A stretch of DNA of 63,629 bases, counting the filler, from Collodictyon triciliatum (taxonomy: Eukaryota): the NCBI GenBank assembly GCA_043381765.1. It is 17 parts of 17 records of this genome, joined end to end, with 100 filler letters (N's around TTAATTAATTAA, not from the genome) between each part and the next. Parts side by side here need not be neighbours in the genome. Positions count along the whole stretch, not along the records: positions 54,420 to 58,255 come from JBHJMP010006808.1; 16 more parts are not named here. One strand, written 5' to 3'. The number at the start of each line of letters is the position of its first letter. Within the stretch, counting starts at the first letter, position 1. The translations under genes and the position numbers were made by a program. A model generated the notes under the pieces. The model did not search any database, was not told where the DNA came from, and saw only the letters and a program-made list of their open reading frames with translations. Of this stretch, positions 4,336 through 58,356 are shown piece by piece.

Positions 4336-6692
4336 TTGATTATGTTATTTGGAATACGAGGGAATTTAATTACAACGACGCTGGTATATTTTTAGTGAAT
4401 AAGTTGGCCTCAAGACCTCTCATGCTAATGGATTTGTAGAATCTTATATGTCAAAAGAAATACTAGACCCGTGTGATTTATTTTTCATATTATTTTAAAA
4501 TCAAATCTTATGCACAATTGTTATAGTTCGATGAAATCTGGCCATGGATGATGTTGAAGTCTAGAGTCTAGGTATTGTAGGAATGTATGTGATGAGATTA
4601 TTATTGATACTTACTAGGCGCATAGGAGGGAATCTTAAATTCAGTTCCTGCTCCGACCTGACATGTAGCCCAATCCAACTTGTGTCACTACTTTGCAGCG
4701 AAGGTACAACTGTATTATTGGGCTGTAGAAGAAAAGGTAATGCATCAAATACAAAACCTCCGTCTTTTTGGACAAATTGAAAGGAAGAAAAAGAAAAAAA
4801 AGGTAATAGAAAGGCAACTTTGTTAAAACGAAATAAAGTACAATATCGCTATGCAGATGTTATTTATTAAAATATATCGAACTTTAGGACGGTGTAGGTA
4901 GGTTCAATATAGGGATGCGCTTACGATAAATTGAAAAAAAAATTATCGATGAGTTTTATGTTCAACTTTATGTAACCAGTTCATTTTTTGTATGGCATAA
5001 CCTCGCTGCACTTTGAATCGAATAAAGGAAAAAAAATATTACCAGTTCATCCATTATTATTATTATTGCTATGATTTGTGTGTATCAGCAACACCATCAT
5101 TAATGCGTAAATAATGTGATTTTTTTAAATAAAAAGAGTGTATGGGCCGCATTATCATTGTTAGCTCTTAAGTAGCGTCCATGTAAACGATGGCTAGCGA
5201 ACCAAAGCCAACACCCCCTCGGTCCTGCACAAAAGTTGAAAGGAAGAATAAAAAAAAATCATTGTTAGCTCTTGAAGACCGCGATTACGCTTGCAGTGTG
5301 CAGTGGCTTATTGATATCTCAAAATCTTATTATGCATCATTTGTCAATGAATTATTAAGAAGAGTCGAATGGTTGAGTAAATCAAGTGGCTCATCATTAT
5401 TATTTGAGACGAAATGAATATAATATAAAAAGAATATATTCATGGTTCGTGAAATATATTATTTGTAAATTCATATTTAGAATTTGATTATGTTAAAAAA
5501 ATCCAGTATGATGAAAGTGATTAACTAGTTTTTGTGCCGGAAATATGGTTTATACTGCACTATCTATTACATATTGGTCTTTGTGATTGATGGCTTACAT
5601 AAAAATGATTAGGCAAATTTTACTAGAAAGAAACTTTTTGAATTTTATTTTTATTGGAACTTAGTTATCTTTGATATATTTGTTTACTTTTTAAAGGGTT
5701 AAGTTTGATTATTTGGGATATAGTTTATTTATTTATTTTAAAGCATCAGAGCGATATAAAATTATTACTGATGGTGACCATAACACGATTTAAAATAGTT
5801 ACAAATATACTTTGACATACGTTAAACTTATGAGCAGGTTTTTTGGCATGCTTAAAATACTTTTGAGAGTTTATCTTCCTTCATATAGCATTACGTTGAT
5901 AGATTAGGGTTTATACGTATTTGCAGTGTGGATAAATTTTGGTGAATTTTTTAATTTTAGTATTTGGCCCAAAATATATGTATGCTTGAGTGCGTATGGC
6001 TCGATAGTATTATGAGGCAAGTTAATATCTTATTGCTATTAAGAATGGGCATTTTATGTTTAGTTATGGAAAAAATATAATTATATTTTATGTCTATGTT
6101 AAAATGTTGCATGTTTTTTTTATGTTTTTTTACTTGAAAACATAATTTGGTATTTTTGTCTAATTTATCTTTCGATTAATTTGTGTTTCATCATGCTATT
6201 TATTTGTTTAATTATTGATGTATGATTAAAAGGTTAAAAATTACTTGGTTTGCTAGACATATTTTTGTTCTTGAGTCAATTTATTTTCCATTGGCCATAT
6301 TCTAATGCACATATCCAAACATAACGAATACATTGATAATTGAATGATGATGGACATGATTAAACTTTAAGAAAGATTTGTAATCGCCTAAGGCATAAAT
6401 ATAATCGTAGGTTAAAGTCGACTATATTGAGTGTGAAAATGGAAGTCGTGTACAGTGCTGCTTGAAAATACCGAACTATTTGACGAAAACACACTTACCC
6501 CAGGTAACCTACCTCAATTTATTTGAGCTTGATTATGAGCCGTCGTGCTTAAATAATTCCATATTTTAAAAGAGTTGTGCAGAATAAAATTATTTAGCAG
6601 ATTACAATCTTAAAACAAATAAAAATGTCTTTTATCACAAGATTTTATTATTAGGATATGTCAATAATTGCTCACGGATGCAGCCGACTTGA
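4336..6692 (+). CDS. Possible multi-exon hypothetical protein
   Basis: Several AG/GT-bounded open segments (VDYVIWNTREFNYNDA, VQWLIDISKSYYASFVNELLRRVEW, VKVDYIECENGSRVQCCLKIPNYLTKTHLPQ, DMSIIAHGCSRLE). No family recognised. Confidence 0.3.
4985..5036 (+). mobile_element. Retroposon tail family B, truncated copy with TSD
   Basis: TATGGCATAACCTCGCTGCACTTTGAATCGAATAAAGG-A8, flanked by ACCAGTTCAT at 4975-4984 and 5041-5050. Confidence 0.7.
5170..5257 (+). mobile_element. LINE tail family A, 5'-truncated copy with 16-bp TSD
   Basis: Ends AAAGGAAGAAT-A9. ATCATTGTTAGCTCTT at 5154-5169 and 5258-5273. Body matches 31079-31130. Confidence 0.85.
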
Positions 6693-6910: not shown

Positions 6911-7426
6911 NNNNNNNNNNNNNNNNNNNNNNNNNNNNNNNNNNNNNNNNNNNNNNNNNNNNNNNNNNNNNNNNNNNNNNNNNNNNNNNNNNNNNNNNNN
7001 NNNNNNNNNNNNNNNNNNNNNNNNNNNNNNNNNNNNNNNNNNNNNNNNNNNNNNNNNNNNNNNNNNNNNNNNNNNNNNNNNNNNNNNNNNNNNNNNNNNN
7101 NNNNNNNNNNNNNNNNNNNNNNNNNNNNNNNNNNNNNNNNNNNNNNNNNNNNNNNNNNNNNNNNNNNNNNNNNNNNNNNNNNNNNNNNNNNNNNNNNNNN
7201 NNNNNNNNNNNNNNNNNNNNNNNNNNNNNNNNNNNNNNNNNNNNNNNNNNNNNNNNNNNNNNNNNNNNNNNNNNNNNNNNNNNNNNNNNNNNNNNNNNNN
7301 NNNNNNNNNNNNNNNNNNNNNNNNNNNNNNNCGTTGATCTGATCTATAACTCACAACGCGAATGAGTGTGGTGATCGCACTGAGAGACATAATTGAGAGG
7401 AACATAAAAAAATCACAGTAATTAAG

Positions 7427-7744
7427 ATGAAGTCTGTTTTGCTGAGAAACAATAAACACTGAGAAAAAAAAAGGCACATTTTCCAGAAAATAATATCAAT
7501 ACACTGACTTTCTCTCCTTCTTCCAACCCGCCACATTCTAAAGAAAAAAAAAAAACACGCAAGCGATCGGAAAGAGCGATCCTGAGAAGGACGAGACCGC
7601 CAACTAGGAGACCGAAAAGGTCACTTAACCACATCCCATGCAACACAGGTTATGCACCGAGACACACCGACGACCGAGACACCAGCTGCCACCGACCCGT
7701 GAGTACAACAAACTACTAATAAGATGGAGTGAGCTCTTTGAAAC

Positions 7745-7808
<64 letters not shown>
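7427..7808 (+). mobile_element. Repeat family C with (AAT)n tail, copy 1
   Basis: Colinear with 11910-12317 (e.g. CCGACCCGTGAGTACAACAAACTACTAATAAGA in both). Ends in about 20 AAT units. Confidence 0.7.
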
Positions 7809-11727: not shown

Positions 11728-11909
11728 NNNNNNNNNNNNNNNNNNNNNNNNNNNNNNNNNNNNNNNNNNNNTTAATTAATTAANNNNNNNNNNNNNNNNN
11801 NNNNNNNNNNNNNNNNNNNNNNNNNNNAAAAAGGGAACGAAAAAGTGGGGAAAAAAATTAAAAAAGCAAAAATTGAAGGAAGAAAAAAAAAAAAAAAAAA
11901 AAACAATAA

Positions 11910-12317
11910 TGAAGAAAAAGTCAGATTCGCTGAGAAACAAGCACTGGCAGAGAAAGAAGGACACATTCCCCAGAAAATAATATTATTGCTCTGGCGTTCT
12001 CTCCTTCTTCTCTCAACCCGCCACATTCTGAAGCCGAAATGAAAAAGCAAGCAAGTAAGCAAGGAAGTGAGTGATCGAAAAGAGGGATCCTGAGAAGGAA
12101 GAGACCGACGCCGCAGCCCTGCGCCAATTAACGCAAAACGAGTGTGGCGACGTAGCCGACCCAGAGAGCAAAAAGGTCACTTTACCGCATCCCTTTACAA
12201 CACAGGCTATGCACCGAGACACACTGACGATCAAGAAGCCAGCTGCCACCGACCCGTGAGTACAACAAACTACTAATAAGACGGAGCGAGCTATTTGAAA
12301 CAAATAATAATAATAAA
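11910..12317 (+). mobile_element. Repeat family C, copy 2
   Basis: Colinear with 7427-7746, with an extra segment near 12120-12160. Ends TTTGAAAC-A(AAT)4. Confidence 0.7.
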
Positions 12318-12781
12318 GGGAGAAAAAAAAAAAAAACAAAGATGGATCAAGCTCCTATGGTGGAGCATGGTAGAAGCGAAATGATATCTTTTGCACATGG
12401 AGCATAAGCCTGCAACACGCTGTGAGCACAACTCCGTGGCACGGACGACTCCAACGCACCTAGCCTGCTATCACAGTGAGATCTCAAAAGATACAATATT
12501 GCAACCCATAGAACAATACAACAAATACTTTTTTATTCTTTGATATTAAGATTATGTGTAAAATGAAGAATAAAGTAAAGTCATACATTCCCCTCAATGA
12601 AGTGGGGTAAAACAGTTGCGTATAAAAACAGCGAATAAGTTTTATGTCTTTTGAAACGGTTGACGTATTTTATTTACGGCTTTTATGATAATAAATGATA
12701 TTTTAAAAAGTTTGAATATTGAATGACATATTAGTATAAATGGAAAAAACGATATAGTTCGATTTGACGGAGCAAGAAGGC

Positions 12782-13289
12782 AAGCAAAAGGGTAATTTCA
12801 TCACGTCCAGTCGGCATGAGCGACGATCCAGTTTCCAAATATTTGTGTAAAAAATAAGAAAAGTGGCTGCAAAATGAGGATCAAGATGAAGCTAAAAGAA
12901 AAAAGGAAAAAAAAAAAAAACAACATTAGTGAGGGAGAGAAAAAGCGGTCTTTCAAAAGTCAACAGGCAAAGTGAGGCGCCTGAAGAAAGGGAAGGCAGA
13001 CTTTCAAAGATGCGGGTTTACGAAAGACAAAGACGGTAATGGGAGATGCTCCATCAAAGAGATGGAAGGCTCCACGACCAAGCGATTCGCGCAAGGAATC
13101 GAAGAGAGCAAGAGACTCCTGAAGAAAGACTGAAAGGCCTCAAGTTCAAGCCATCAACTCACGGCCAGCAAGATAAGTATGATTATAGTGCTCGGTATCA
13201 GTTTCTCTGATTCATTAAACTGTTTCATTTTCTTTTTTTCCTTTTTCTTTTCCTTTCTCATCCCGTTAAAGCACGGGTACCCTTACTAG
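12782..13289 (+). mobile_element. Non-autonomous Helitron-like element, copy 1 (5' end undefined)
   Basis: 3' hairpin CCCGT-TAAAGC-ACGGG (13262-13277), then CTAG at 13286-13289 followed by T. Homologous to 41191-41689. Confidence 0.65.
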
Positions 13290-19825: not shown

Positions 19826-22767
19826 ATGAGGAAAAGTCCAAAACTTCAGCAAATAATACTGGGTAAGCCCTTCTTATTTCTGAATCATTCTCTTTTCTTT
19901 TTATAATATATTCGTCTATTAGTTGCCACCATACTTGTATATATTTCATCGAGCTATGCACAAGTTTCTTCGATTTACACAACCGGAACGGGTCATACAA
20001 GTACTGTTCACAGTGTCGCTGTTACTCCTGATGGTTCAAAAATTGTTTCTGGAAGTACTGATAAAGCAATAAAAATTTGGGATAATTCTAATAGAACAAC
20101 GATTTGTACATTGAACGGTCATGCTGGTAGTGTTTACAGTGTTGCTGTTACTCCCGATGGTTCAAAAATTGTTTCAGGAAGTTATGATAGTACAATCAAA
20201 ATCTGGAATCTTTCTGATGGAACTTTGATTCGCACATTGACTGGTCATACTGAGTATCTTAACAGTGTTGCAATTTCTCCTGATGGCTCAAAAATTGTTT
20301 CTGGAAGTGGCGATAATACAATCAAAATTTGGAATCTTTCTGATGGAGCCTTGATTCGCACATTAACCGGTCATACCCGAAATGTTCGCAGTGTTGCTGT
20401 TACTCCCGATGGTTCAAAAATTGTTTCAGGAAGTTGGGATAACAAGATTAAAATTTGGAATCTTTCAGATGGAGCTTTGATTCGCACATTGACCGGTCAT
20501 AATTCTTATGTTCAAAGTGTTACTGTCACTCCTGATGGATCAAAAATTGTGTCTGGAAGCGAGGATTATACAATAAAAATTTGGAATCTTTCTGATGGAG
20601 CTTTGATTCGCAACTTGACTGGTCATACTAATTCTGTTCGTAGTGTCACTATCACTCCTGATGGTTCAAGAATTGTCTCTGGAAGTGAAGATAGAACAAT
20701 AAAAATTTGGAATCTTTCTGATGGAGCTTTGATTCGCACATTGACTGGCCATACTTCCACAGTTTGTGGAATTAATTTAACTCCTGATGGCTCAAACATT
20801 GTTTCTGGGAGCCAAGACCGAACTGTAAGACTTTGGAATTTTCATGATGGAAGTACTGTTTACACAAGAGGTTCCAAAGTTACAAGTATCATTTCTTCTC
20901 AGTCTAAGTCAACTTTTATTTCAGGGCACTCAGATAATATTATAAGAATTTGGAATCTGTCAAATGGCAATTTAATCAGGTCATTTATTGGACATACAGA
21001 TGAAGTTAACGCACTGACTTTAACAGCAGATGGCTCCACAATAATCTCTGGATGTTCAGATAAAACCATCCAGTTATGGAATGTTGATGATGGGTCTTTG
21101 ATTCAATCATTTGAAATACATTCTGAATCAGTTAACTCAGTTTCTTTAACTGCAGACGGAACAAAAATTATATCTGGAAGTAGCGATAAAACAATCAAAA
21201 TTACAAACATATCTGATGGAACATTAATTAGAGCGTTAATCGGACACACGGGAATAGTAACAAGTCTTGCTTTAACTCCAGACAGCTCAAAAATTGTTTC
21301 TGGAAGTGCTGACAAAACCATCAAAGTTTGGAATTTTTTTGACGGAACATTAGTTCAAGAAATAAAAGTTCACTCTGATGCGGTAAATTCTGTTGCTATA
21401 ACATCAGATGGAACAAAAATTGTTTCTGCAAGCAGCGATAAAACAATCAAAATAACAAGCATTTTAGATGGAACTCTAATTCGCACACTCAATGGACACA
21501 CAGGAATCGTTAAGACAGCTATTATTTCTCCAGATGGCTCTAAAATTATTTCTGGAGGCAGTGATAATACAATAAGAATATGGAATTTTTCAACTGGAGT
21601 CACAATAAATATAATGAACGAGCACATTCTTGGAATTAACGGAATATCAATTGTTTCTGATGGCAAGAAATTTTTGTCAGGAAGCGATGATACAACAATC
21701 AAATTGTGGAGCTTTCCTGATTTCAGCTTGATTCTGACCGTTTCAGGCCACACAAGTTCAGTTAATAGCGTTTCTTTGAGCCCAGATAAAACAAAAATTG
21801 TATCAGGAAGTAGTGACAAAACAATAAGAATTTGGAATTATGCTGATGGTTCTCAAGCACTTTCGATAAATGCCCATACAAGTGCTGTAAATAGTGTTGT
21901 TGTTTCGGCTGATGGAACAAAAATAGTCTCAGGAAGCAGCGACCAGACAATTAAAATGTGGAATTTCTCGGATGGTTTATTGTTGAGAACATTTAGCGGA
22001 CATACTTCAGCTGTTCGAAGCGTAGCAATAACAACAGATAGTTCCGTTATAGTATCAGGAAGCGATGATACAAATATAAATATTTGGAGAGTTTCAGATG
22101 GAATTTTAACTCGTACCTTATTAGGTCATTCTAAAAGTGTGAATTCTGTTTTCATCATTCCAGATAATAGCAAAATAATATCAGGCAGTTCTGATTTTTC
22201 AATAAAAGTATGGAATCTATCAGATGGAGCATTAATAGGAACCATAATTGGTCACGGAAATGCTGTCAGGTGTGTTATTACTTCTCCAGATGGAGCACGA
22301 ATTATCTCTGGAAGCAGCGATAACACAATCAAAATTTGGAACATATCAGATGGCATGTTAATTCGAACAATGACAGGACACTCAAGCTCAGTAAATAGCA
22401 TTTCAATATCACCGGATGGCACAAAATTGTATTCTGGAAGCAGCGATAAATCGGTCAAAATATGGACAATATCAGACGGAAGAGAAATTCGAACACTTCT
22501 GAGTCACACCGATTCCGTTAATATTGTTTTCGCTACTACTGATTCAAAAATAATTTCAGCAAGCACTGATAGATTTATCAAAGTCTGGAGTCCATGCCAA
22601 GGAGGATACTTTTTCAACCAGCAATCAAACACATGCGAAAAATGTCTGTCTGGCTCTTACAATAACGGAAACGAGCTCACCTCTTGTTTATTATGTCCAA
22701 CTGGAACTTATAATCCATCAACTGGTTCCACAAGCCTTAGAGACTGTCTTCTGTGTGAGGAAGGAAC
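19826..22767 (+). CDS. Signal-peptide WD40 protein: 21 WD repeats plus Cys-rich CxxC-GTYNP repeats, 3' partial
   Basis: ATG at 19826; GT-AG intron 19863-19922 gives MRKSPKLQQIILVATILVYISSSYA-QVSS. Then 21 GH...W[N/D/S/T/R] repeats from 19991, and CQGGYF..CEKCLSGSYN..CLLCPTGTYNPSTGS from 22595. Confidence 0.9.
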
Positions 22768-22943
22768 NNNNNNNNNNNNNNNNNNNNNNNNNNNNNNNNN
22801 NNNNNNNNNNNTTAATTAATTAANNNNNNNNNNNNNNNNNNNNNNNNNNNNNNNNNNNNNNNNNNNNTCTTTTTTCTCTTTTTTCTCTTTTTTCTCTTTT
22901 TTCTCTTTTTTCTCTTTTTTTTTCTTTTTTTTTTTCTTTTTCA

Positions 22944-23195: not shown

Positions 23196-25376
23196 CAAAC
23201 CGCAGAGCAACAAATCGAAAGACCACTCCAAGGGAGATATGACTTTGCTTGGGAGGTTTATCGCACTCGCTTTGGAAATGCAAAGTTTGTGATGGCACCC
23301 ATGGTTTGTCTTCTACTATGTACCCTTTTTTCCACAAGTGTTCGAATATATTTCTAATCTACTATTTTTCTGTGATTGTCTTTATATTTAAATCCATATT
23401 TCTCATAATCCAAAATAAATTATCGCAGGTCGACCAATCAGAGTTAGCGTTTCGTATTCTTGTGCGCGGTTATACACCGGACGTATTGTGCTACACGCCC
23501 ATGCTGCATAGGTAAGTTAGTATTACAAAGTGAAATTTGTCATCTCTTCACCATCCTGCACAAAATTGAAAGGAAGAAAAAAAATATGGCAAATGGTTTA
23601 ATTGATAAATCTTAACTTAGCTATCACTTTTCGACCAACGAAAAGTATCGACAAGAGCATTTCACCACAACACCAGATGACCACCCCTTGATTGCTCAGG
23701 TATCAAAAATAAATCAATGTGTTGTATTCTTTGTGAAACCTTGCATATAGGTGATGTAATTTTAGTTAGTTGTGAAAGTTTCACAAAATATAATGAAGAA
23801 ATCCCCCGCTCTGTAGTTTTGTGCAAATGACCCTGATACATTGGTCAGCGCATCCAAGTTTCTAGAGAGTAAAGTTGATGCCATTGATTTGAATCTTGGA
23901 TGCCCTCAAGGAATTGCTAGACGCGGTCATTATGGCGCATTTCTGATGGAAGAGCCTGACCTTGTCTACAACATAGGTTTTTTTCTTTCTTTTTTATTGT
24001 TTTCATACGTCTTTAAAAATCTTCGATATGGAATATACTTCCCTTTTTTTTCTTGTTGTTGATATTGAGATTTTTAATCTTCCTTTCAATTTTGCGCAGG
24101 ATGGTGCTGTTGTTGAGATATATAATCAGTAAATTTTCCTTTTAGTGTCCAACCTAGTGAAGCATTCCTCTGTTCCTGTTACATGCAAGTGTAGAATTTT
24201 TGATGATTGGGAGAAAACCAAGAAGTGGGTCCAAATGCTCGAAAGTACAGGAATTGTGGTATGATTCACTTCGTAATTTTCTGTGAAAAAAAAAAGCAGC
24301 AATTAAAATCGGCCCTCTATTAGGTGACTTAATGTCTGGTTTTGTATTAGTGTCTTGCAGTTCATGGGCGTACGCGCGACCAAAAGCCAAACACAAAGTA
24401 CAGAGCGGACTGGGGCACTATCAAAAGAGTCAGGTACTGTTGCAATCAAATATCATGTTCTATATGTAAATACATCCACTCTATAACCCAAACACCTACA
24501 GAGAACTACTGAGAATTCCTGTCATTGCAAATGGCAATATTCGGCATCTTAAGGATATTGAAGACTGCATGGAATTCACTGGTGCGGTTGGGGTTATGTC
24601 TGCGGGTATTAATACGAGCGAATTATTTTTGGATTCCTATCCTTTGAATCGAATAAAGGGAAAAAAATTTTGGATTCCTATCGATCGACTCTACATTAAA
24701 TTCGTAATTCGTAATGATAAACTGATTAATTGATTCAGAAGAGGATTGATTGGTGTGGATTATTGAATATCCATCTTATTGAAATATATTTTAATACTAG
24801 AAACCTTGCTGGAAAACCCTGCCCTCTTCACTGGGCGAGATATTCATCCGTGCGAAATGTCTCTCGAATATCTCCGAATCTGCCAGAAGCATCCGACACC
24901 TGTGCGAATGATACGTTCCCATATATTTCAGATGCTTCATCCGAGGTGATTCTACATTCAAAAAAATTGTGCATTTCTGTGAATAGGATGATGGTATGCT
25001 ATAGTCCCAAATGAAATTGACTCACTTTTGAGACCCACACATAACCCACACCAGGCTATCAGTCCATACGGATTTGAGAGAGAAGCTTCAGGATGCACAA
25101 AATGTGCAGGACCACATCGATGTTGTCACCGAACTATACGACAGAGATTTGGTTTGGAAATTTTCACAACAAGCATGATAACTGTATGAATTACTTTTTC
25201 TGTAGAGGATATAAGCTATCGCTTTTATTTCATGGAATGAATGAGAGGAAAAAACATTCATCCAGAAAGGAATTTCCCCACCTCAACCGCCCCCGAAGAA
25301 CGAATCACCAAGTGCACCCACCGACTCTGCATCACAAGAGGACATTTCTCTGGAAGGATTCGATATCTTCGCATAA
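23196..25376 (+). CDS. DUS1: tRNA-dihydrouridine(16/17) synthase, multi-exon, 5' partial
   Basis: [95 protein letters not shown]. Confidence 0.95.
23547..23584 (+). mobile_element. LINE tail family A copy in a DUS1 intron
   Basis: CCATCCTGCACAAAATTGAAAGGAAG-A8. Confidence 0.75.
24071..24115 (-). mobile_element. LINE tail family A copy in a DUS1 intron
   Basis: TCTTCCTTTCAATTTTGCGCAGGATGG. Confidence 0.7.
24642..24667 (+). mobile_element. Retroposon tail family B, 26-bp copy with 15-bp TSD in a DUS1 intron
   Basis: CTTTGAATCGAATAAAGGG-A7 between two TTTTGGATTCCTATC (24627-24641, 24668-24682). Confidence 0.85.
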
Positions 25377-32545: not shown

Positions 32546-34601
32546 ATGGCGAGGATAGGCGGATTTCCCTTAAAAATACCCAACTGGTTGATTTTCACGC
32601 TTTTCTTCAGCTTAAGTGTCAATTTTGCCTTAACCTGGTCCGTTATGGAAACCACGTGCCAGTCCTCTCTTGAAACTGCAGCTTTTTTTGACATTCAAAC
32701 GAGCCTTAAGGTTCAGATCGACTTCGTCGAAGAAAAAGCCGGTCTCATTCATCATGATCAACTCATAATTTGGAAAAATGAGGAAGACTGGCAGAGAGTT
32801 GTTCATGGTGGTATTCTCACTTTGCAATACAACAGCTACATTATACTTTCGAATTCCAGCATTTTCTTGGATTGTCGTACAGAAGAACATGATGTCAACC
32901 TGTCAAAGCTACTTTGCATTTCCAAGAGACTCTACCTATCCAAGTTAATACCAAACTATTCCATTCTTCAAGGTAAAATACTGAGTATAATCCTCATGAT
33001 ACTGCGCTTTTCTACGTCTCTTTAGGTTAGATAAAATGGTTGAAATATTTTTACAAATAGATGAATATGGTAGAATCTCTGTTGTGAAAAAAATACAACG
33101 AAATAATAGAGGATTTTTTTGTGTCAATGGAAATTTTATTAAACATCAGGAAAATCAGACACCAACAGAGCAAGTGAGGATTAAATTATGAGATAAAAAT
33201 TGCATACATCAAATAAGATGGCATAAACGACCCTAGTGAATGATTTTGACCATCCATCAGATACAGGAAGTCTACAAGAGCTCCAGAATCATATATTCAA
33301 ATATCTCCTTTTCGAGATCCAAGAAAAAAGGTGAAGTGAAATACTCTTATGGAAAATGCTATTTTATATTCAGAGAACTCTTTCCTGATTGTAAATCAAT
33401 CTTGTAGGTATAGATACAGCCCTGATGGAAAAAGGAGTAAACCAGTCGGTCGGTTTCATTGAAACCCCCCATCCTTTACAATATCCCTTAAATGCTACAG
33501 GAGTCACGGTTCAATCACCGGTCGATACAAAAAAGAAAGGAGACAATGCAATGAGCATTGAAAAGTACTCTCGTATAAAAAAATTTCGTGGACGAAATAA
33601 GGTATTCGACAGAAGCTTAGATAACTTATCTGAGATTTTTCTGGAAAAAGAGGATTTTGAAAGGAAAAAGAAGAGCTAGTTGTTATTTTACATAAAAAAA
33701 TTCTCATAATTTTGAAACGTATGATATAGTAATAAATATGCCCTTCACCTCTTGAAATACTAAATGGATAAATCGTCAGACTGCTGAACCGTTCCCCAGG
33801 AAAATTTTCGATTCTTTTTACCATTGGTTCAAGAAAAATAAGCCCCTGTTTGACATTACCTCCATGAGGCGCAGAACATCATGCATGAAAAAAATCAATA
33901 AATGCAAAGGTATGGATTTCAAAAGATAAAGCCTCAAATCATTTATATAATTGAAATAATTTTGCAACAAAATAGTTATGTTTTTTTTCCTTTATTCGAT
34001 TCAAAGTGTAGCGAGGTTGTGTCAAGCAAAATAGTTATGTTAAAAGTATTTTTCAAAAAAAGGAACAAAACTGATGGACGGCGCACAGTTGGTTCAAAGA
34101 AACGACGCCAAGTAATACAGCTTACAAAATATTAGTTAATTTGCTATTGAATGACGAAAATTATACTCATATTTATTTTCTTGGATACAATTAAAGGAAA
34201 AGGAATGAGAGCTATCAAAACACTCCTCGTTTTACAGAGTCAAATACATACGGAAATACCGAGAGTCTTCAAAACACACCGCTTGGTGAGCAAACTAACA
34301 CGTATTCAGAGACTGGGAGTCGCCAGAACACTCCACTCGTGACAGAGTCAAATACATACGGAAATACCGAGAGTCTTCAAAACACACCTCTTGGTGAGCA
34401 AACTAATACGTATTCAGAGACCGAGAGCCGTCAGAACACTCCACATGTGACCGAGTCAAATACGTATGGAAATACCGAGAGTCTCCAAAACACACCGCTT
34501 GGTGAGCAAACTAACACGTATTCAGAGACCGAGAGCCGTCAGAACACTCCACTTGTGACCGAGTCAAATACGTATGGAAATACCGAGAGTCTTCAAAACA
34601 C
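32546..34601 (+). CDS. Hypothetical protein with N-terminal hydrophobic segment and Thr/Ser/Asn/Glu-rich tandem repeats, 3' partial
   Basis: MARIGGFPLKIPNWLIFTLFFSLSVNFA..., several GT-AG-bounded exons and an in-frame repeat exon from about 34200. Linking these segments into one gene is inferred. Confidence 0.45.
34204..34601 (+). repeat. Coding tandem repeat, 108-bp unit made of two 54-bp subunits
   Basis: (TESNTYGNTESLQNTPLG EQTNTYSETESRQNTPxV) about 3.5 times, up to the contig end. Confidence 0.9.
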
Positions 34602-41190: not shown

Positions 41191-41689
41191 AAGCAAGAGT
41201 ATTTTGATCGTCTGAAGTAGAATGGGTGACGACGATGCTGGTTCCCAAAATTAAATAAAATAAAGATTAAAAAAAAAATAAGGCTGTTAAATGACGAGTA
41301 CGATGAACGGGAAGAAAGCGAGAGAGAAAAAGGGCTCTTGCAAAACTGAAGAGGCAAAATGGGTTGCGTGAAGAAAGGGAAATCAAAAAGAGAAAATAAC
41401 GAAATAGAAAAGCAAAGGGTGAAAAAATCAAAAAAATGGAGTTTAAGATGTACTGAAGTTTTTTTTTAAAAAATGTGTCCATGTAACATCTCCTGATAAG
41501 ATATGCTACGGGATTATGCCATGGGATTATGACGCCATAAATCAAGGGTTTTCTATATCACTGGGTGGGACGGTTTGTGTTTGTATCATATATGATTTTT
41601 CTTTTTTTCCTTTTTCCTTTTTTCCTTTTTCTTAATTCTTTTGTTTCTTTTTTTCTTTCGCCGGTTCGAAGCACGGGTACCTCAGTTAG
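41191..41689 (+). mobile_element. Non-autonomous Helitron-like element, degenerate copy 2
   Basis: Colinear blocks with 12782-13289. AAGCACGGGTACC followed by TTAG at the same spacing as CTAG in copy 1. Confidence 0.55.
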
Positions 41690-43572: not shown

Positions 43573-46432
43573 ATGAGATTGAATTCAAGGTCGTTTGCAG
43601 CTCTGTTGCTGTTGGGTGAGTTTTAAATTATTTGTTTAATTTTATTGACTTCAAATTACAGATTTTAATTGATATATTTTTAGGATTGATGCTCCACTGC
43701 CAATTGTGTCCTGTTGAAGGGCAAGATGATTCGATACGCACATTGACTGGTCATACTAATAGCATTACCAGTGTTGCTGTTACTCCTGATGGCTCAAAAA
43801 TCATTTCTGGGAGTGATGATAATACAGTCAAAATTTGGAATCTTTCTGATGGAGCTTTGATTCGCACGTTGACTGGTCATACTGATTNNNNNNNNNNNNN
43901 NNNNNNNNNNNNNNNNNNNNNNNNNNNNNNNNNNNNNNNNNNNNNNNNNNNNNNNNNNNNNNNNNNNNNNNNNNNNNNNNNNNNNNNNNNNNNNNNNNNN
44001 NNNNNNNNNNNNNNNNNNNNNNNNNNNNNNNNNNNNNNNNNNNNNNNNNNNNNNNNNNNNNNNNNNNNNNNNNNNNNNNNNNNNNNNNNNNNNNNNNNNN
44101 NNNNNNNNNNNNNNNNNNNNNNNNNNNNNNNNNNNNNNNNNNNNNNNNNNNNNNNNNNNNNNNNNNNNNNNNNNNNNNNNNNNNNNNNNNNNNNNNNNNN
44201 NNNNNNNNNNNNNNNNNNNNNNNNNNNNNNNNNNNNNNNNNNNNNNNNNNNNNNNNNNNNNNNNNNNNNNNNNNNNNNNNNNNNNNNNNNNNNNNNNNNN
44301 NAAATTGTTTCTGGAAGTGATGATAATACAATCAAAATCTGGAATCTTTCTGATGGAGCTTTGATTCGCACATTGACTGGTCATACTCATTCGGTTCTCA
44401 GTGTTGCTGTTAATCCTGATGGGTCAAAAATCGTTTCTGGAAGTGATCATAATACAATCAAAATCTGGAATCTTTCAGATGGTGCTTTGATACGCACATT
44501 GACTGGTCATACTGATTCGGTTTACAGTGTTGCTGTCACCCCTGATGGTTCTAAAATTGTTTCAGGAAGTTTCGATAATACAATCAAAATCTGGAACCTT
44601 TCTGATGGAGCTTTGATTCGCACATTGACTGGTCATACTCATTCGGTTCTCAGTGTTGCTGTTACTCCTGATGGCTCAAAAATTGTTTCTGGTGGTGGTT
44701 ATGAAGGTGGAACAATCAAAATCTGGAATCTTTCTGACGGAGCTTTGATTCGCACATTGACTGGTCATACTGATTCGGTTTACAGTGTTGCTGTTACTCC
44801 TGATGGCTCAAAAATTGTTTCCGGTGGAAGCTATGATTATACAATCAAAATTTGGAATGTTCCTGAATTACAATGCATTCTTGGTCAGTTTTATGATTTA
44901 GAATCAAAATCTTGTCAGCCATGCCCATCTGGAAGCTACAGTTTTGGAGGGACTTCATCTTGCATTATGTGCCCTACTGGTACATACAATCCATCAACTG
45001 GCCAGTCTGCCTGCCTTTCATGTGCAACTGGTACATACAACCCATCAAATGGTTCCTCTAGTGTTGATTCCTGTCTTTCATGCGCAGCTGGCACATACAA
45101 TCCATCTACGGGTTCCTCTAGTGTTGGTGCTTGTCTTTCATGTGCAGCTGGCACATACAATCCATTTATTGGTCAATTAACCTGTTTTTCATGTGCAGCT
45201 GGCACATACAATCCATTTATTGGTCAATCTGCTTGTCTTTCATGTGCAGCTGGCACATACAATCCATTTATTGGTCAATCTGCTTGTCTTTCATGTGCAG
45301 CTGGCACATACAACCCATCAACTGGTTCCTCTAGTGTTGATTCCTGTCTTTCATGCGCAGCTGGTACATACAATCCATCTACGGGTTCCTCTAGTGTTGA
45401 TGCTTGCCTATCATGTGCCATTGGCACATACAATCCATTTATTGGTCAATTAACCTGTCTTTCATGCGCAGCTGGCACATACAATCCATCTACGGGTTCC
45501 TCTAGTGTTGATGCTTGCCTATCATGTGCCATTGGCACATACAATCCATTTATTGGTCAATCTGCTTGTCTTTCATGTGCAGCTGGCACATACAACCCAT
45601 CAACTGGTTCCTCTAGTGTTGGTGCTTGTCTTTCATGCGCAGCTGGTACATACAATCCATTTATTGGTCAATCTGCTTGTCTTTCATGTGCAGCTGGCAC
45701 ATACAACCCATCAACTGGTTCCTCTAGTGTTGGTGCTTGCCTTTCATGTGCAGCTGGCACATACAATCCATTTATTGGTCAATCTGCTTGTCTTTTATGT
45801 GCAGCTGGTACATTTAACCCGTCAATTGGCTCTGTAAGTATTAATGCTTGTCTTTCATGTACAGCTGGTACGTATAATCCATATAGTGGTCAGTTTTCTT
45901 GTCTTTCCTGTACGACTGGCACATACAACCCATCAAATGGTTCCTCTAGTATTAGTTCTTGTATTTCATGTGCACCTGGAACCTATAGCTCATCAACTGG
46001 CCAAATAGCTTGTACTTCCTGTCCGAGTGGAACATATAATCCATTCACTGGCTCTTCAAATCCTAGCTCCTGTATAGCTTGTGATGCTGGCACTTATAAC
46101 CCTATAAATGGTTCTACTTCTATTGAAAATTGCCTGCCATGTGGACCAGGGACGTTCAATTACAAAAAAGGACAGGCTTTATGTGATCCATGTGAGCCAG
46201 GAACTTACACCAGCGATGAAGGAAGGAAGAACTGCCTAGATTGTCCACCTGGACAATACAACAGCAAATACGGTCAATCTGAATGCAGTATGTGTCCTTT
46301 TGGAACATATAATCCTATTAGAAAGAGCACTAACTCGTCGTCCTGTATTCAATGCGAAGTAGGTACATACAATAGTGTCGATGGAAAATCAACTTGTTTT
46401 GATTGTCCTGCGGGATTTTATATGGATGAGAG
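43573..46432 (+). CDS. Signal-peptide WD40 protein with a long Cys-rich repeat stalk (paralog of 19826), internal gap, 3' partial
   Basis: ATG at 43573; intron 43616-43683 gives MRLNSRSFAALLLLGLMLHCQLCPVEG-QDD. Near-identical WD repeats to about 44860, then at least 27 CxxC-xxGTYNP units (GCC2_GCC3/ephrin-receptor-like). Confidence 0.9.
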
Positions 46433-46533
46433 NNNNNNNNNNNNNNNNNNNNNNNNNNNNNNNNNNNNNNNNNNNNTTAATTAATTAANNNNNNNNNNNN
46501 NNNNNNNNNNNNNNNNNNNNNNNNNNNNNNNNT

Positions 46534-54007: not shown

Positions 54008-54419
54008 CTACGTTTTTTTTTTTATGCTTTAAGTTATCATTTTTCGTGATCGATTCAACAAATACATATTTTTTTTTTAATAATACGCCACAATGGGAGT
54101 TTTTTGGGGTCTCTTGATAGGAATACACAATTGATTCAGAATAAACAAAGACGATTTTTACTCTGGCGAAAGAAACCGAAAGAAACCGAAAGAAACAAAA
54201 AAAAATCAAAAAAATCAAAAAAATCAAAAAAATCAAAAAAATCAAAAAAATCAAAAACAAAAACAAAAAGAAAAAGAAAAGAAAAGAAAAGAAAAGAAAA
54301 GAAAAGAAAAGAAAAGAAANNNNNNNNNNNNNNNNNNNNNNNNNNNNNNNNNNNNNNNNNNNNTTAATTAATTAANNNNNNNNNNNNNNNNNNNNNNNNN
54401 NNNNNNNNNNNNNNNNNNN

Positions 54420-54496
<77 letters not shown>

Positions 54497-54852
54497 GGCT
54501 GGTGCAGAGGCATCAAACAAACTGTGCTCGCCCCTATGTTCAACTCCAACCCATCTGGTTGGTTCCGTTTCGCTTTTCATTCTTTTCTTCTTTTTTGGGA
54601 CTGGTTTTGAATTGAACGCTCAAACCCAACGAACTGAATAGCGCTAATTCTGCTCGAGAAGGGGAAAAAAGAATCACTGTTGAAACGTTTCTTAAACGCG
54701 TTGAGACGGCGCACCTTTATAAATATACACTCCACCTCCCCAAGCGTTCAAACCTGGCTGGGTGCAGTCGATTGTTGTCTTTTACCTGTATGTGGAATAT
54801 TCATGAAAATCCAACGTTTTAGACATGGAACATATTTTATTGTAGTCTACAT

Positions 54853-54879
54853 TCTTTGAATCGAATAAAGGAAAAAAAA
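54853..54879 (+). mobile_element. Retroposon tail family B copy
   Basis: CTTTGAATCGAATAAAGG-A8. Confidence 0.65.
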
Positions 54880-55159
54880 TCGTAGTGCGAATTAATTTTG
54901 ATTATCATTTTATTATTATATGTATTAAGACCTTGTGTGTTTGTTTGCCACAAAGCACATATTTCGAGAGTCTCTGTGGATGCTTTATTTTACATGAATT
55001 GATTTTGTGCAGTTTTTTTATGTTTTTAATTGACTAATTGACTATAGTTTTATTAAAATTGAAAACTCGGTAGTTTTCTGAAGGAAAAAGTAAAACAAAG
55101 ACTTTCAGGTGAAGAAAATATAACGTCTTGAGTCCGAGAATTTAAATTCTGTAAAACCA

Positions 55160-56976
55160 TACTATCGAAATGTGAAAACATATCTAAGGTCGATTGTAAA
55201 GAATGCGGATGACTATAACAAAATCAACGATGCGGTTTTATTGTGTCATAATTTGGTTACCGACACTTATCTGTTTGCAAGATGTTACATATTGAAAGCA
55301 CAACAACACCCAACAATCGATGAAAAATTTTTGTACGCTTTAAAGGCAATAGGAGTAGTTTCACAAGATAGACCAGCAAGTTTAAAAAATCCAGAAATGA
55401 GAGATGACTTGATGACTTTTTATCTCAATGATTTTCTATTCCATTTGTCCCGAGAAGAACGCGTTCCGTTGGTTGGACTGTCTCATGTATTACCGTACTT
55501 GGCAAAGCAAATGTTAACAGCTTAATACAATAACACTAAGGAACATTTTGTAAAGAGTTTACTACGTTTCATGAATCAAACAGTTCCTAAAGGTGAGAAT
55601 ATTACGGAAGCAATTAAAAAGGCATAGTTACGGAAGTTAAAATAAAGTCATCTACAAGAAACTCGATTTACAGTAAATCCACAAAGGGTGGGCTAAAATG
55701 CATTTGAATCGTATCATTCCCAGCGATATTGTAAAAGGTATCGAATATGATACCAAAGTGAATCCAAATAAGTATATTCCATGTCTGATTTACATGAATC
55801 GCATTCTTGAGGACATTGGAACCACACTGTTTCAACCAATTTCTATAGAACTAACAATATGCCATGCCATATTACTCTAGATAATGCATGTTTGATAGAT
55901 ATATTATTATTATCTGGAAAAACATTATTAAAGAAGAATATATCAGGATGCAAAGAGACACTATGGTATAACTTCTTTGAAATGAAGAAGAGGGTCATTC
56001 ATCAAAGAGACTACAATTTCAAATACATGATACAAACAGACGGATTGGTGGTGTCATTATTGTTTGAAAAGAAAGGTATTTCAAATTCAAAATTCCAATT
56101 TTATCAAAAAAAATCAGGGATTTGTCTATGGATGTGTATTTTCCGAAGAGCAGTTTTCTTTATTAGCGACAAGAAATAGCTGGGGTGGACGCAGGCAATT
56201 TTAATTTTGTTTACATGGTGTGTGAGACAGGTAAGAAATTACGTTACACAGCACACCAAACAAGACATTATAGCAAATCTCTTAAAAATCACAAAATACT
56301 CTTGCGCGAGAATGAAAAAATGCAATGTTTCAGGGATATGCACAGTAACAGGTTTACAAAGTGTTGTTTCTTTTGTTGCCATGACTTTTGAAGAGAATCA
56401 GCAGTTTGAGACATCAAGAGTATCTTTAATCGATTTAGAGACAGAACTGAGTGAACATAATTCATGCACAGTCGATTACGAAAAATTTCGAAAATATGTA
56501 TCTATGAAATCAAGATACCAGATAGAATTATCCAGATTTTATGAACACGTAACTTTTCGAAATATGATATGGAGACGGTTTGTTAATACAAAAAGAAGTG
56601 AACAGTTGTTTATGGACTGAATCGAAAAGACATTTGACAAGGATGTTGTGCTGGTGTATGGGGACTGGAGCAGAAAATCTCCGATGAAACATTTTATGCC
56701 AACAATCGGAAGAGGATTACGAAAAGTACTATCCAATCATTTTGAACAAGTTAGTGTAGGTGAATTTAGAACCTCCAAGATGTGCTGAATCTGCGAAAAA
56801 GAACTGGAGTATATAACACTGAAAGGAAGTTGAAAAAAGGTATATAGATGTCTCATATGTAAAGAATGTAATCGCTCAGAAAGCAAAGTGTATTCTTGGC
56901 AAGGGACTTTAACAGCGCTAATAATATACTCAACAAAGTTCTTTTAGTCCTTCAAAAAAGGCATAAACCTTTTTAA
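55160..56976 (+). pseudogene. Fanzor1 (eukaryotic TnpB-derived RNA-guided nuclease), disrupted by stops and frameshifts
   Basis: Ordered motifs VKTYLRSI, MLTA*YNNTKEHF, YDTKVNPNKY..YMNRILE..LFQP, MIQTDGLVVSLL, RuvC-I GVDAG, LRYT, LVYGDWS..MPTIGRGLR, RuvC-II GEFRTSKMC*IC, zinc finger CKEC, RuvC-III RDFNSANNI. Confidence 0.88.
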
Positions 56977-56999
56977 AAAAAAAAAAAAAAAAAAGGCTG

Positions 57000-57135
57000 T
57001 TGGGTCTTTCCTCTGGTAGCCTTCACCACTACACTATCTTTGTTAAAAAGTGGTGAGACCTTGGATACTTGCGGACAAAGTTTGCCAGTCAAAAGATGGC
57101 ATACCCCTTCTGGTATAATAATGAATGTTCATTAG
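57000..57135 (+). ncRNA. Candidate Fanzor omega-RNA scaffold / element right end
   Basis: Directly 3' of the Fanzor ORF. Stems TCACCACT/AGTGGTGA (57023-57056), TGCCA(G)TC-AAAA-GATGGCA (57083-57101) and ATACC/GGTAT (57101-57116). Confidence 0.4.
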
Positions 57136-57435
57136 AACCGGTACAACACGAGAGGGTACCAACGAAGCGCCGGCCAGAGGGAATCTACAAATGGAGAGTG
57201 GGAAGGGCGCAAGAGTAAAGAAACGACTTTATTGCCAGCACAATTCGAAACGGGCGTGCTTTGCCATCAGGAACACCCCTTCGAAGCGCAGGAGCGAAAA
57301 GAACACCCACCAGACAGGATGAACCAACCGAACGACTGAAAGAAGGAAAGTAAGAAAATAGACTTGTAAACGATAAGGGAGAGGCTGCGGCCCCGAAAAC
57401 CCAGGTACTGGCCCTGTGTCATTCTCGTTCGTTGC

Positions 57436-58191
57436 TTAAATGCCGATCATAAACTTTTTGCGTGGCATGTACCCGGCGAAGGATACAGCACGGGTTTCTC
57501 CAAGATAATCTTCCACTTGGTAGTTGTGGGAGCCAGGAACTCCCAACGATGGAGGTGTACGATATTGTTCGTGGTTTCCGGTGGCCGGTCTCGAGTTCGG
57601 AGCTGACTGGTGTCGTGATTGTGGGCGGGAGGTTCTCTCGATTTGATGGACCTGCTCAGCCCTCTCTCGATACTGTTCTGCGATGCGCTCCCCTGGTGTC
57701 ATAGGGCGACTTCCACCTCGGCTACTCGGCTTATTTGGAGTCCTTGGAGCTGGGGTTCCACGCTGGGATTGGCGACTGGGTGGAATCGCTTGCTGTTCGT
57801 CCACAATACGCTGCACATATTCTCCATTCTGGTAGTCGCTATTGATGACACCATATGCATTTATCATCCCGGGAACGTGGCCCTATTTTGTTTAACGAAT
57901 TCTAAATATTAATATATTATCTATAACGATTAAATTCATTTGACAGTTGTTTTCAGAAGAGTAGAGTTTTTTCTTTTTCTTCTGTTTCTTTGTGATTCCA
58001 AAATGCCGAGATTGAAGCGTTCTTTAAAGTATTTTTTTTAAAAAAAAAAACCAACCTGATATCCCATTATTCGAGGACGCGAGGAATTATAGTTAACAAA
58101 TGCACCATCTCCTTGATAGCTCCCAACCGGTGGATGATGAAAATCAAACTGCTCAGCTTCATAATGGTTGACTCCGTATGATTGACGGGGT
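57436..58191 (-). CDS. FAM166/CIMIP2-like ciliary microtubule inner protein, 5' partial
   Basis: Spliced PRIMGYQ|GHVPGMINAYG and a second FAGYMP motif (GYxG[YH]xP repeats). Confidence 0.55.
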
Positions 58192-58356
58192 GCTATTTTT
58201 GAGACAAGATGTCATTTTCTTTTTTTTCTAGTATTGCTAGAATATGTAAATCCGANNNNNNNNNNNNNNNNNNNNNNNNNNNNNNNNNNNNNNNNNNNNT
58301 TAATTAATTAANNNNNNNNNNNNNNNNNNNNNNNNNNNNNNNNNNNNNNNNNNNNA

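Follow-up and report, generated by a model that had tools for sequence, protein, structure and literature searches.

Broken Fanzor1 nuclease genes probably carried by a non-autonomous Helitron, apparently of the canonical type, in Collodictyon triciliatum

Fanzor1 genes in Helitrons are already known. Associations of Fanzor with non-autonomous Helitrons are recorded in PMC10530073, the passages concerned leaving the Helitron group unnamed, and the closest described examples, CRe-1, CRe-2 and CRe-3 of Chlamydomonas reinhardtii (PMC3627910, PMC10530073), are presented there as Helitron2 elements with asymmetric inverted repeats, TTTT targets, variable target-site duplications (TSDs) and introns. 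No cleavage in vitro is reported for a Chlamydomonas Helitron2 Fanzor (PMC10530073), the TSDs of the CRe Helitrons have speculatively been ascribed to Fanzor itself (PMC10288648), and why Fanzors ride copy-and-paste Helitrons, which are expected to leave behind no empty donor site for re-invasion, is posed as an open question in PMC13565253. As described for Helraiser (PMC4778049), a Helitron whose hairpin is lost or bypassed can form new 3′ ends and carry cargo, and insertion takes place between A and T without a TSD. A Fanzor in a canonical (HLE1) Helitron was not found in the literature searched, although Repbase or the association table of PMC10530073 may list one.

The window analysed here is a stretch of 63,629 nt from the C. 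triciliatum assembly, in which gaps (e.g. 54320-54419 and 58256-58355) are N runs with a TTAATTAATTAA linker that join contigs, so that contigs adjacent here may lie apart in the genome. In our judgement one of its contigs, 3.8 kb in length, probably carries a dead, 5′-truncated copy of a non-autonomous Helitron, apparently of the canonical (HLE1) type, that captured a Fanzor1 gene. Elsewhere in the window, two long ORFs encode a WD40 repeat protein with 20 repeats (20111-22819) and a protein with WD40 and 16 ephrin-receptor-like repeats (43632-46484). The HSP90 encoded in this genome is without a close named relative, its named matches being 66-78% identical; the term protist used in the preliminary description is plausible.

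The Fanzor1 gene lies on the plus strand at 55109-57040 (end approximate), with about 640 codons interrupted by at least eight stops and about six frame changes; residues 1-166, 182-256 and 249-595 of P0001, an intact relative introduced below, match it in tblastn. Three-frame translation reproduced at their exact positions the six stops listed in a preliminary description of this DNA (55523, 55625, 55643, 56618, 56786 and 56831), with further stops at 55121 and 55674 and frame changes near 55640, 55848, 56114, 56177, 56323 and 56884. The start codon at 55109 now reads GTG. The RuvC acidic residues were likewise found exactly where claimed, all on the plus strand: the RuvC-I Asp of GVDAG at 56188 (D-A-G motif, 56188-56196), the RuvC-II Glu of GEFRTS just upstream of the zinc finger (56762-56764), and the RuvC-III Asp of RDFNS (56905-56907). 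The TDG motif (56036-56044, plus strand), assigned to the WED domain of Fanzor1 in PMC10711439, is also present, as are GDWS at 56660 and two CxxC pairs. The preliminary description placed the gene at 55160-56976; the broken gene is real, but it starts at 55109 and belongs to a repeat that extends from 54927 to 57113. DPG, cited there as a Fanzor1 motif, reads DAG in the window copy.

Translated with X at stops, the segment 56372-56899 matches three PDB sequences at E≤1, all of them Fanzor1: PpFz1 (9cf0, E 3.5e-10), SpuFz1 (8gkh, E 1.4e-6) and GtFz1 (9cer, E 1.3e-5). Alignment to family HMMs, put forward earlier as a check, gave in Pfam a weak match to PF07282 (E 0.047, below the cut-off). NCBIfam gave no match for three proteins, and for these reasons the assignment is based on structure sequences and relatives and not on family cut-offs. 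With a decayed family copy as query, 52 of 6383 candidate proteins matched at E≤1e-10. The best of these, P0001, is an intact protein of 648 aa from a metagenome contig and is 67% identical to the family consensus, the next proteins and the ORFs of virus contigs being 41-46% identical to it. A profile of 21 intact relatives finds SpuFz1 at E 6e-65, PpFz1 at E 4e-63 and GtFz1 at E 4e-47. The predicted P0001 model (mean pLDDT 77) superposes on SpuFz1 with a TM score of 0.73-0.75, far above Fanzor2 or TnpB, and its matches to these three Fanzor1 structures have E values from 1e-25 to 1e-22; in the fold search seven Fanzor1 chains come first (E≤3e-22), followed by Fanzor2 (1.6e-4) and TnpB (1.7e-4). 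The Fanzor1 signature D-X(125-275)-[TS][TS]-XX-C4 finger-X(5-50)-RD, with its shifted RuvC-II Glu, is present in the consensus (TDG at residue 311, D at 362, E at 553, C4 at 560-588, RD at 601) and still readable in the window copy. The stops and frame changes, the structure matches and the profile and fold of the relatives together uphold the earlier reading of the gene as a dead Fanzor1, which in this copy can no longer yield the protein.

The RuvC-I motif is DAG in 78 of 82 family copies and DPG in none, while the Pro of DPG is invariant in all 21 intact relatives and present in the sister protein P0001. We read DAG as a change probably derived inside the Fanzor1 clade; if it is, Fanzor1 descent stands, and a working canonical site is not implied. 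A 33-residue insertion before the RuvC-II half is common only to the family and P0001 among the 21 relatives, and the two pair with an SH-aLRT of 100 within a clade mixed with virus-contig proteins, in a tree of 42 rows built by quick search only, for which 6 of 17 viral loci yielded usable ORFs. The suggested uncharacterised lineage holds only narrowly, for a small subclade that appears to lie inside the ordinary virus-associated Fanzor1 radiation. Scans of JGI metagenomes for the DNA context of P0001 returned one distant match (36%), and a first viral scan with a decayed family copy as query gave no match.

In the 75-Mb assembly the family has at least 151 matches (150 of 670 candidates scored), and 29 other loci align to the window copy at 82-86%, from about 54927 to 57090-57130. 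A consensus was computed by script from 34 near-full copies; homopolymer slips aside, its frame is open, with an ORF of 643 aa in which D/E/D is kept, and 82 copies are 90.9-94.0% identical to it. The expectation that intact relatives might exist in this genome was not borne out: all 88 matches to P0001, used as query so that any intact copy should rank first, are broken or partial (of 1130 candidates, 68 were scored), no intact copy occurred among the 150 candidates scored with the family query, and no stretch free of stops in the 99 segments aligned is longer than 311 codons. Decay was neutral, with a pN/pS of 0.86. Low-frequency variants are synonymous in 24.3% of cases against 24.3% expected, and shared, high-frequency variants in 14 of 96 against 24% expected, with no excess of synonymous changes. 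Subfamilies were not detected: of 6596 variant pairs, 2 show linkage at p<0.001. Copies of the Fanzor1 family spread to well above 100 genomic sites and then decayed.

Per-site divergence in the Fanzor cassette is strongly overdispersed (variance 0.0068 against 0.0009 binomial, 82 copies), and 116 variants occur in at least 14 copies each, mostly non-synonymous and without linkage beyond about 15 bp. CpG contexts are just mildly raised, and the overdispersion may stem from mutation hotspots or very fine gene conversion. Runs X1 and X13 contain all four modules of the element described below, as 569 and 543 divergent contigs, and runs X2 and X3 contain scattered module pieces; these occurrences bear neither on transcription nor on intact copies.

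Full-length copies are about 3.5 kb long and consist of four modules in the order A-(B)-C-F, B being optional. The window copy comprises the Fanzor cassette, module F (54927-57113 on the plus strand, by the 29-locus alignment), without the upstream 1.3-2.1 kb of Helitron-derived modules present in fuller copies. The alignment of copy flanks that had been proposed earlier defined the 3′ end; the probable Helitron carrier was not recognised in the preliminary description. About 200 nt past the RuvC-III Asp homology ends sharply in a hairpin, after which come CTAG and T, and the flanks of the copies diverge immediately beyond. In the window the Helitron terminator-like subterminal hairpin is decayed (57084-57100, plus strand) and the terminus reads CTGG then T (57110-57114, plus strand). 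Of 97 distinct ends, 57 finish in CTAG and 67 in CTRR, as in the 3′ hairpin and CTRR end of HLE1; T follows in 90, and the next 11 bases are AT-rich. The right flank (57119-58256) gave neither a Pfam match nor a local repeat match.

The terminal hairpin loop occurs in two orientations; a script count over 81 copies gave GAAA in 64, TTTC in 14 and other loops in 3, with one of the 64 misassigned, so that TTTC stands in about 15, and such inversion is a flip typical of DNA hairpins. Loci L019 and L073, and likewise L015, L100 and L078, have 80-600 nt of flank after CTAG in common at 89-98% identity, through either read-through transduction or segmental duplication. A motif of 27-33 nt that ends in AATAAAGG and an A run lies at 54847-54880, some 50 nt upstream of where the window copy is truncated, and also at 5011-5037, 24639-24668, 33981-34011 and many other loci; by its appearance it is the end of a different, abundant repeat.

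The preliminary description correctly stated that the contig of the window copy has no transposase. On contig C6377 (L083, G000:C6377:627-4208) a RepHel gene has an open frame of 1194 codons up to the contig end, with STPR, PF14214 and PIF1 domains and a match to Helraiser 7lcc at E 3.5e-42; STPR is given as almost confined to HLE1 in PMC11417382. The contig ends inside the gene, and a complete autonomous partner with both ends was not seen among the contigs. The readable parts of this ORF contain no stop, related Helitrons on C1887, C1290 and C3197 being decayed, and it is possibly a younger or domesticated copy. In 16 of 20 B segments, module B is homologous to this RepHel gene over its 5′ region and initial codons (best match 79% over 216 nt, E 1e-46), the other four covering only other parts of B. 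On C1887, a Helitron that bears a helicase and shares 92% identity with C6377 has as its end a C-like stretch, hairpin, and CTAG followed by T. Module B, this end and the C6377 domains each relate the family to an HLE1-type RepHel element.

Fanzor-less elements combine A and B with only the initial 150-170 nt of C and finish in the same way. One such non-autonomous Helitron lies on another contig of the window (11884-13289, plus strand), with a remnant of the RepHel N-terminus in its module B (12926-13129) and a hairpin at 13262-13277, then CTAG followed by T. At 7379-7750 (plus strand) lies module A of another member, broken off by an assembly gap, and a lone fragment of module B, the RepHel start, at 41282-41381. 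Starts of C run on into the Fanzor type in 61 of 75 cases, and a search seeded with a Fanzor-less copy returned 27 Fanzor-bearing loci among 29 non-self loci. In the main type the sequence departs from the Helitron where its hairpin begins, at the very first base, and goes on through the remainder of C into F. In further chimeras the Helitron hairpin is retained and joined to the start or middle of F, and on two contigs a Helitron end with CTAG and T is followed by the 3′ half of Fanzor at a site between A and T. Both end types finish with TAC, five bases and CTAG, which suggests, on sequence grounds, that the cassette replaced the Helitron's terminal hairpin and was not appended to it. Module C had no match in phages or viral loci.

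Evidence from the 5′ end is less favourable. Homology fades into an AT-rich stretch ahead of a TTTG microsatellite, a repeat that resembles other Helitron 5′ regions; the best-aligned ends, 16 of 53, read A followed by TTTGCA, but they were selected by that motif, so that the reading is circular. A perfect AT-rich palindrome of about 40 nt upstream of module A in L246 (G000:C1643), also present in L033 and L089, is possibly a small foldback element. The canonical 5′-TC was not found at family 5′ ends (best reading, A before TT), nor was an empty insertion site for the family, and one deletion derivative (L010) has a 13/14 near-repeat at both ends, the sole such copy; all three count against a Helitron. 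One nested insertion fits a site between A and T on its 3′ side. TSDs were sought in four ways: none of 25 copies scored ≥8, none of 20 did in a second scoring (4 of 24 left out for misplaced anchors), and permutation gave p 0.40 for 18 5′-complete copies (6 of 24 left out, one end set by hand) and p 0.11 for 18 5′-truncated copies. A TSD was accordingly rejected as a family trait.

The near-repeat of L010 and the unconfirmed 5′-TC would fit an unclassified Fanzor1 element with TSDs, or an eroded Mariner-type element with terminal inverted repeats (TIRs), in which the hairpin and CTAG were coincidental, and the nearest virus-contig relatives are indeed TIR/TA elements. We nevertheless hold this very unlikely: full-length copies include the RepHel-derived module B and the Helitron subterminal module C as integral parts, the TSD signal is absent in both sets of 18 copies, no TIR pair was seen by eye at the ends of the 24 5′-complete copies, and a PF01359 search, run without a positive control, was blank.

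Module A is reached by 21 of 36 informative copies. The other 15 lack most or all of it (one starts in B, six in C and eight in F), which is unusual for HLE1 unless through later deletion and counts against that assignment. A fixed 3′ end with a variable 5′ end, and the many copies that are truncated at the 5′ but intact at the 3′ end, a pattern described for CRe-1/2/3 (PMC3627910), might suggest a one-ended, Helitron2-like element of the CRe kind, or RNA copies spread by a LINE. This seems highly improbable, given that no TSDs were found on truncated copies, that there is no poly(A) tail, that the insertion context reads A and T rather than T and T, that the end is CTAG and that the RepHel is of HLE1 type; moreover, sampling was seeded from the 3′ end, so that apparent 5′ loss is inflated. 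The T-T or TTTT targets and variable TSDs of Helitron2 (HLE2) are not seen, the context upstream of the 5′ ends being A-rich, not T-rich.

For the Fanzor-capturing, apparently canonical Helitron that we favour, the following course of events can be proposed. A Fanzor1 element of the TIR type, like those in giant-virus contigs, would have entered the host, and about 2.7 kb, comprising the rest of C, the gene and a structured tail, would have taken the place of a Helitron's terminal hairpin, with a terminator hairpin now provided by the tail. A host RepHel may then have copied the chimera in trans, by rolling-circle transposition, into sites between A and T in one old burst. The copies decayed neutrally from an open-framed master. 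During the burst the nuclease was most likely a passenger, because DAG stands in 78 of 82 copies, shared variants carry no purifying signal and a chimera with only the 3′ half also moved; the open consensus ORF with D/E/D, and the predominance of Fanzor-bearing over Fanzor-less copies, count against this.

The tail itself (56994-57113, plus strand) overlaps the ORF end and is a putative omegaRNA scaffold of three or four stems. Its fold in L060 has a z score of -4.53, equalled by 0 of 200 shuffles, and 92.7% of cells are paired, with covariation not beyond shuffles within the family. A loop-to-terminus pseudoknot of 5 bp is compatible with the sequence, again without covariation, and the tail has no Rfam match. 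Against a covariance model of virus-borne Fanzor tails, a poor model of four pairs, the best in-tail E value was 2.2, which is not significant. Among those viral tails (L160-L239), a manually designated stem that lies upstream of the right TIR covaries (24 cells changed on both sides, 0 of 500 shuffles), and this TIR-flanked set provides intact candidates for biochemistry. By analogy with the guide position model of PMC10432273, the host flank at 57114-57128 (plus strand) would be the guide if the system were active. Flanks with a near neighbour number 12 against 4 in shuffles, an excess due at least partly to the five loci with 80-600 nt of shared flank. RNA-guided target choice was considered from this likeness and rejected, the five loci reflecting duplication or transduction.

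On the same Helitron carrier, Fanzor could instead have been active in the burst, with the hairpin and CTAG as the end of its omegaRNA, the flank as guide and spread by homing. The open 643-aa consensus ORF, its three acidic residues, its 67% identity to intact P0001 and the predicted Fanzor1 fold of the latter (TM 0.73-0.75 to SpuFz1) would all suit such activity, as would a well-folded tail placed so that host flank becomes guide, the dominance of the Fanzor type (27/29 loci), and the absorption of transposon ends by Fanzor1 omegaRNAs described in PMC10711439. We regard it as unlikely, in that the master had changed DPG to DAG, the shared variants are without purifying signal (14/96 synonymous, 24% expected), the tail shows no covariation and no formal link to virus-borne tails, and the look-alike flanks come at least partly from long shared flanks. 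A bolder version, to which we also give rather little credence, is that a giant-virus-type Fanzor1 acquired, in a single step, a canonical Helitron end instead of its TIR end, with the terminator hairpin and CTAG serving also as the omegaRNA 3′ end of a homing nuclease. If that were true, a Fanzor-bearing Helitron outran its Fanzor-less parent through RNA-guided homing, and the logic of IS200/IS605, with its HUH transposase and TnpB, was rebuilt in a eukaryote with the capture junction still readable.

Set beside known systems, the family resembles SpuFz1 (8gkh), PpFz1 (9cf0) and GtFz1 (9cer) in sequence, fold, TDG, shifted RuvC-II Glu and C4 zinc finger, and differs from them in that all copies are broken, in DAG, in the 33-residue insertion and in belonging to no TIR element. 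Nearest outside the subclade are the TIR-flanked Fanzor1 elements of IMG/VR and giant-virus MAG contigs (L160-L164; 41-43% identical to the consensus), which have TIRs of about 24 bp with TA; of 80 virus-contig relatives, 76 had enough flank; a right TIR is present in 65 of these and a paired TIR in 45. We take these ends to be Mariner-like, and the TIRs and TA duplication of Tc1/Mariner-type elements are absent from the Helitron-Fanzor family. CMe-1A of Cyanidioschyzon merolae, as described in PMC3627910, is similar in its roughly 150 old copies, length of 3 kb, lack of TIRs and a 5′ part shared with a shorter non-autonomous element, but it is unclassified and some of its copies are intact, which none here is.

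With Helraiser and HLE1 as described in PMC4778049 the family shares the subterminal hairpin, CTAG followed by T, an apparent absence of TSDs, RepHel homology and new 3′ ends through hairpin loss or bypass; unlike Helraiser, its cargo is an RNA-guided nuclease with a structured tail, and its 5′-TC is unconfirmed. CRe-1/2/3 are likewise described as non-autonomous Helitrons with Fanzor1 at the 3′ end and many 5′-truncated copies with intact 3′ ends (PMC3627910, PMC10530073), from which the present family is set apart by its CTAG-T end, HLE1-type RepHel, lack of a general TSD, lack of frame-breaking introns and visible capture junction. Its interest is limited since the window copy is a fossil and the assembly holds no tool-ready enzyme. 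The Helitron-Fanzor family is nonetheless an independent case, seemingly in the canonical Helitron group, for which the parent element, the capture junction, several alternative chimeras and the intact sister protein P0001 are all in hand.
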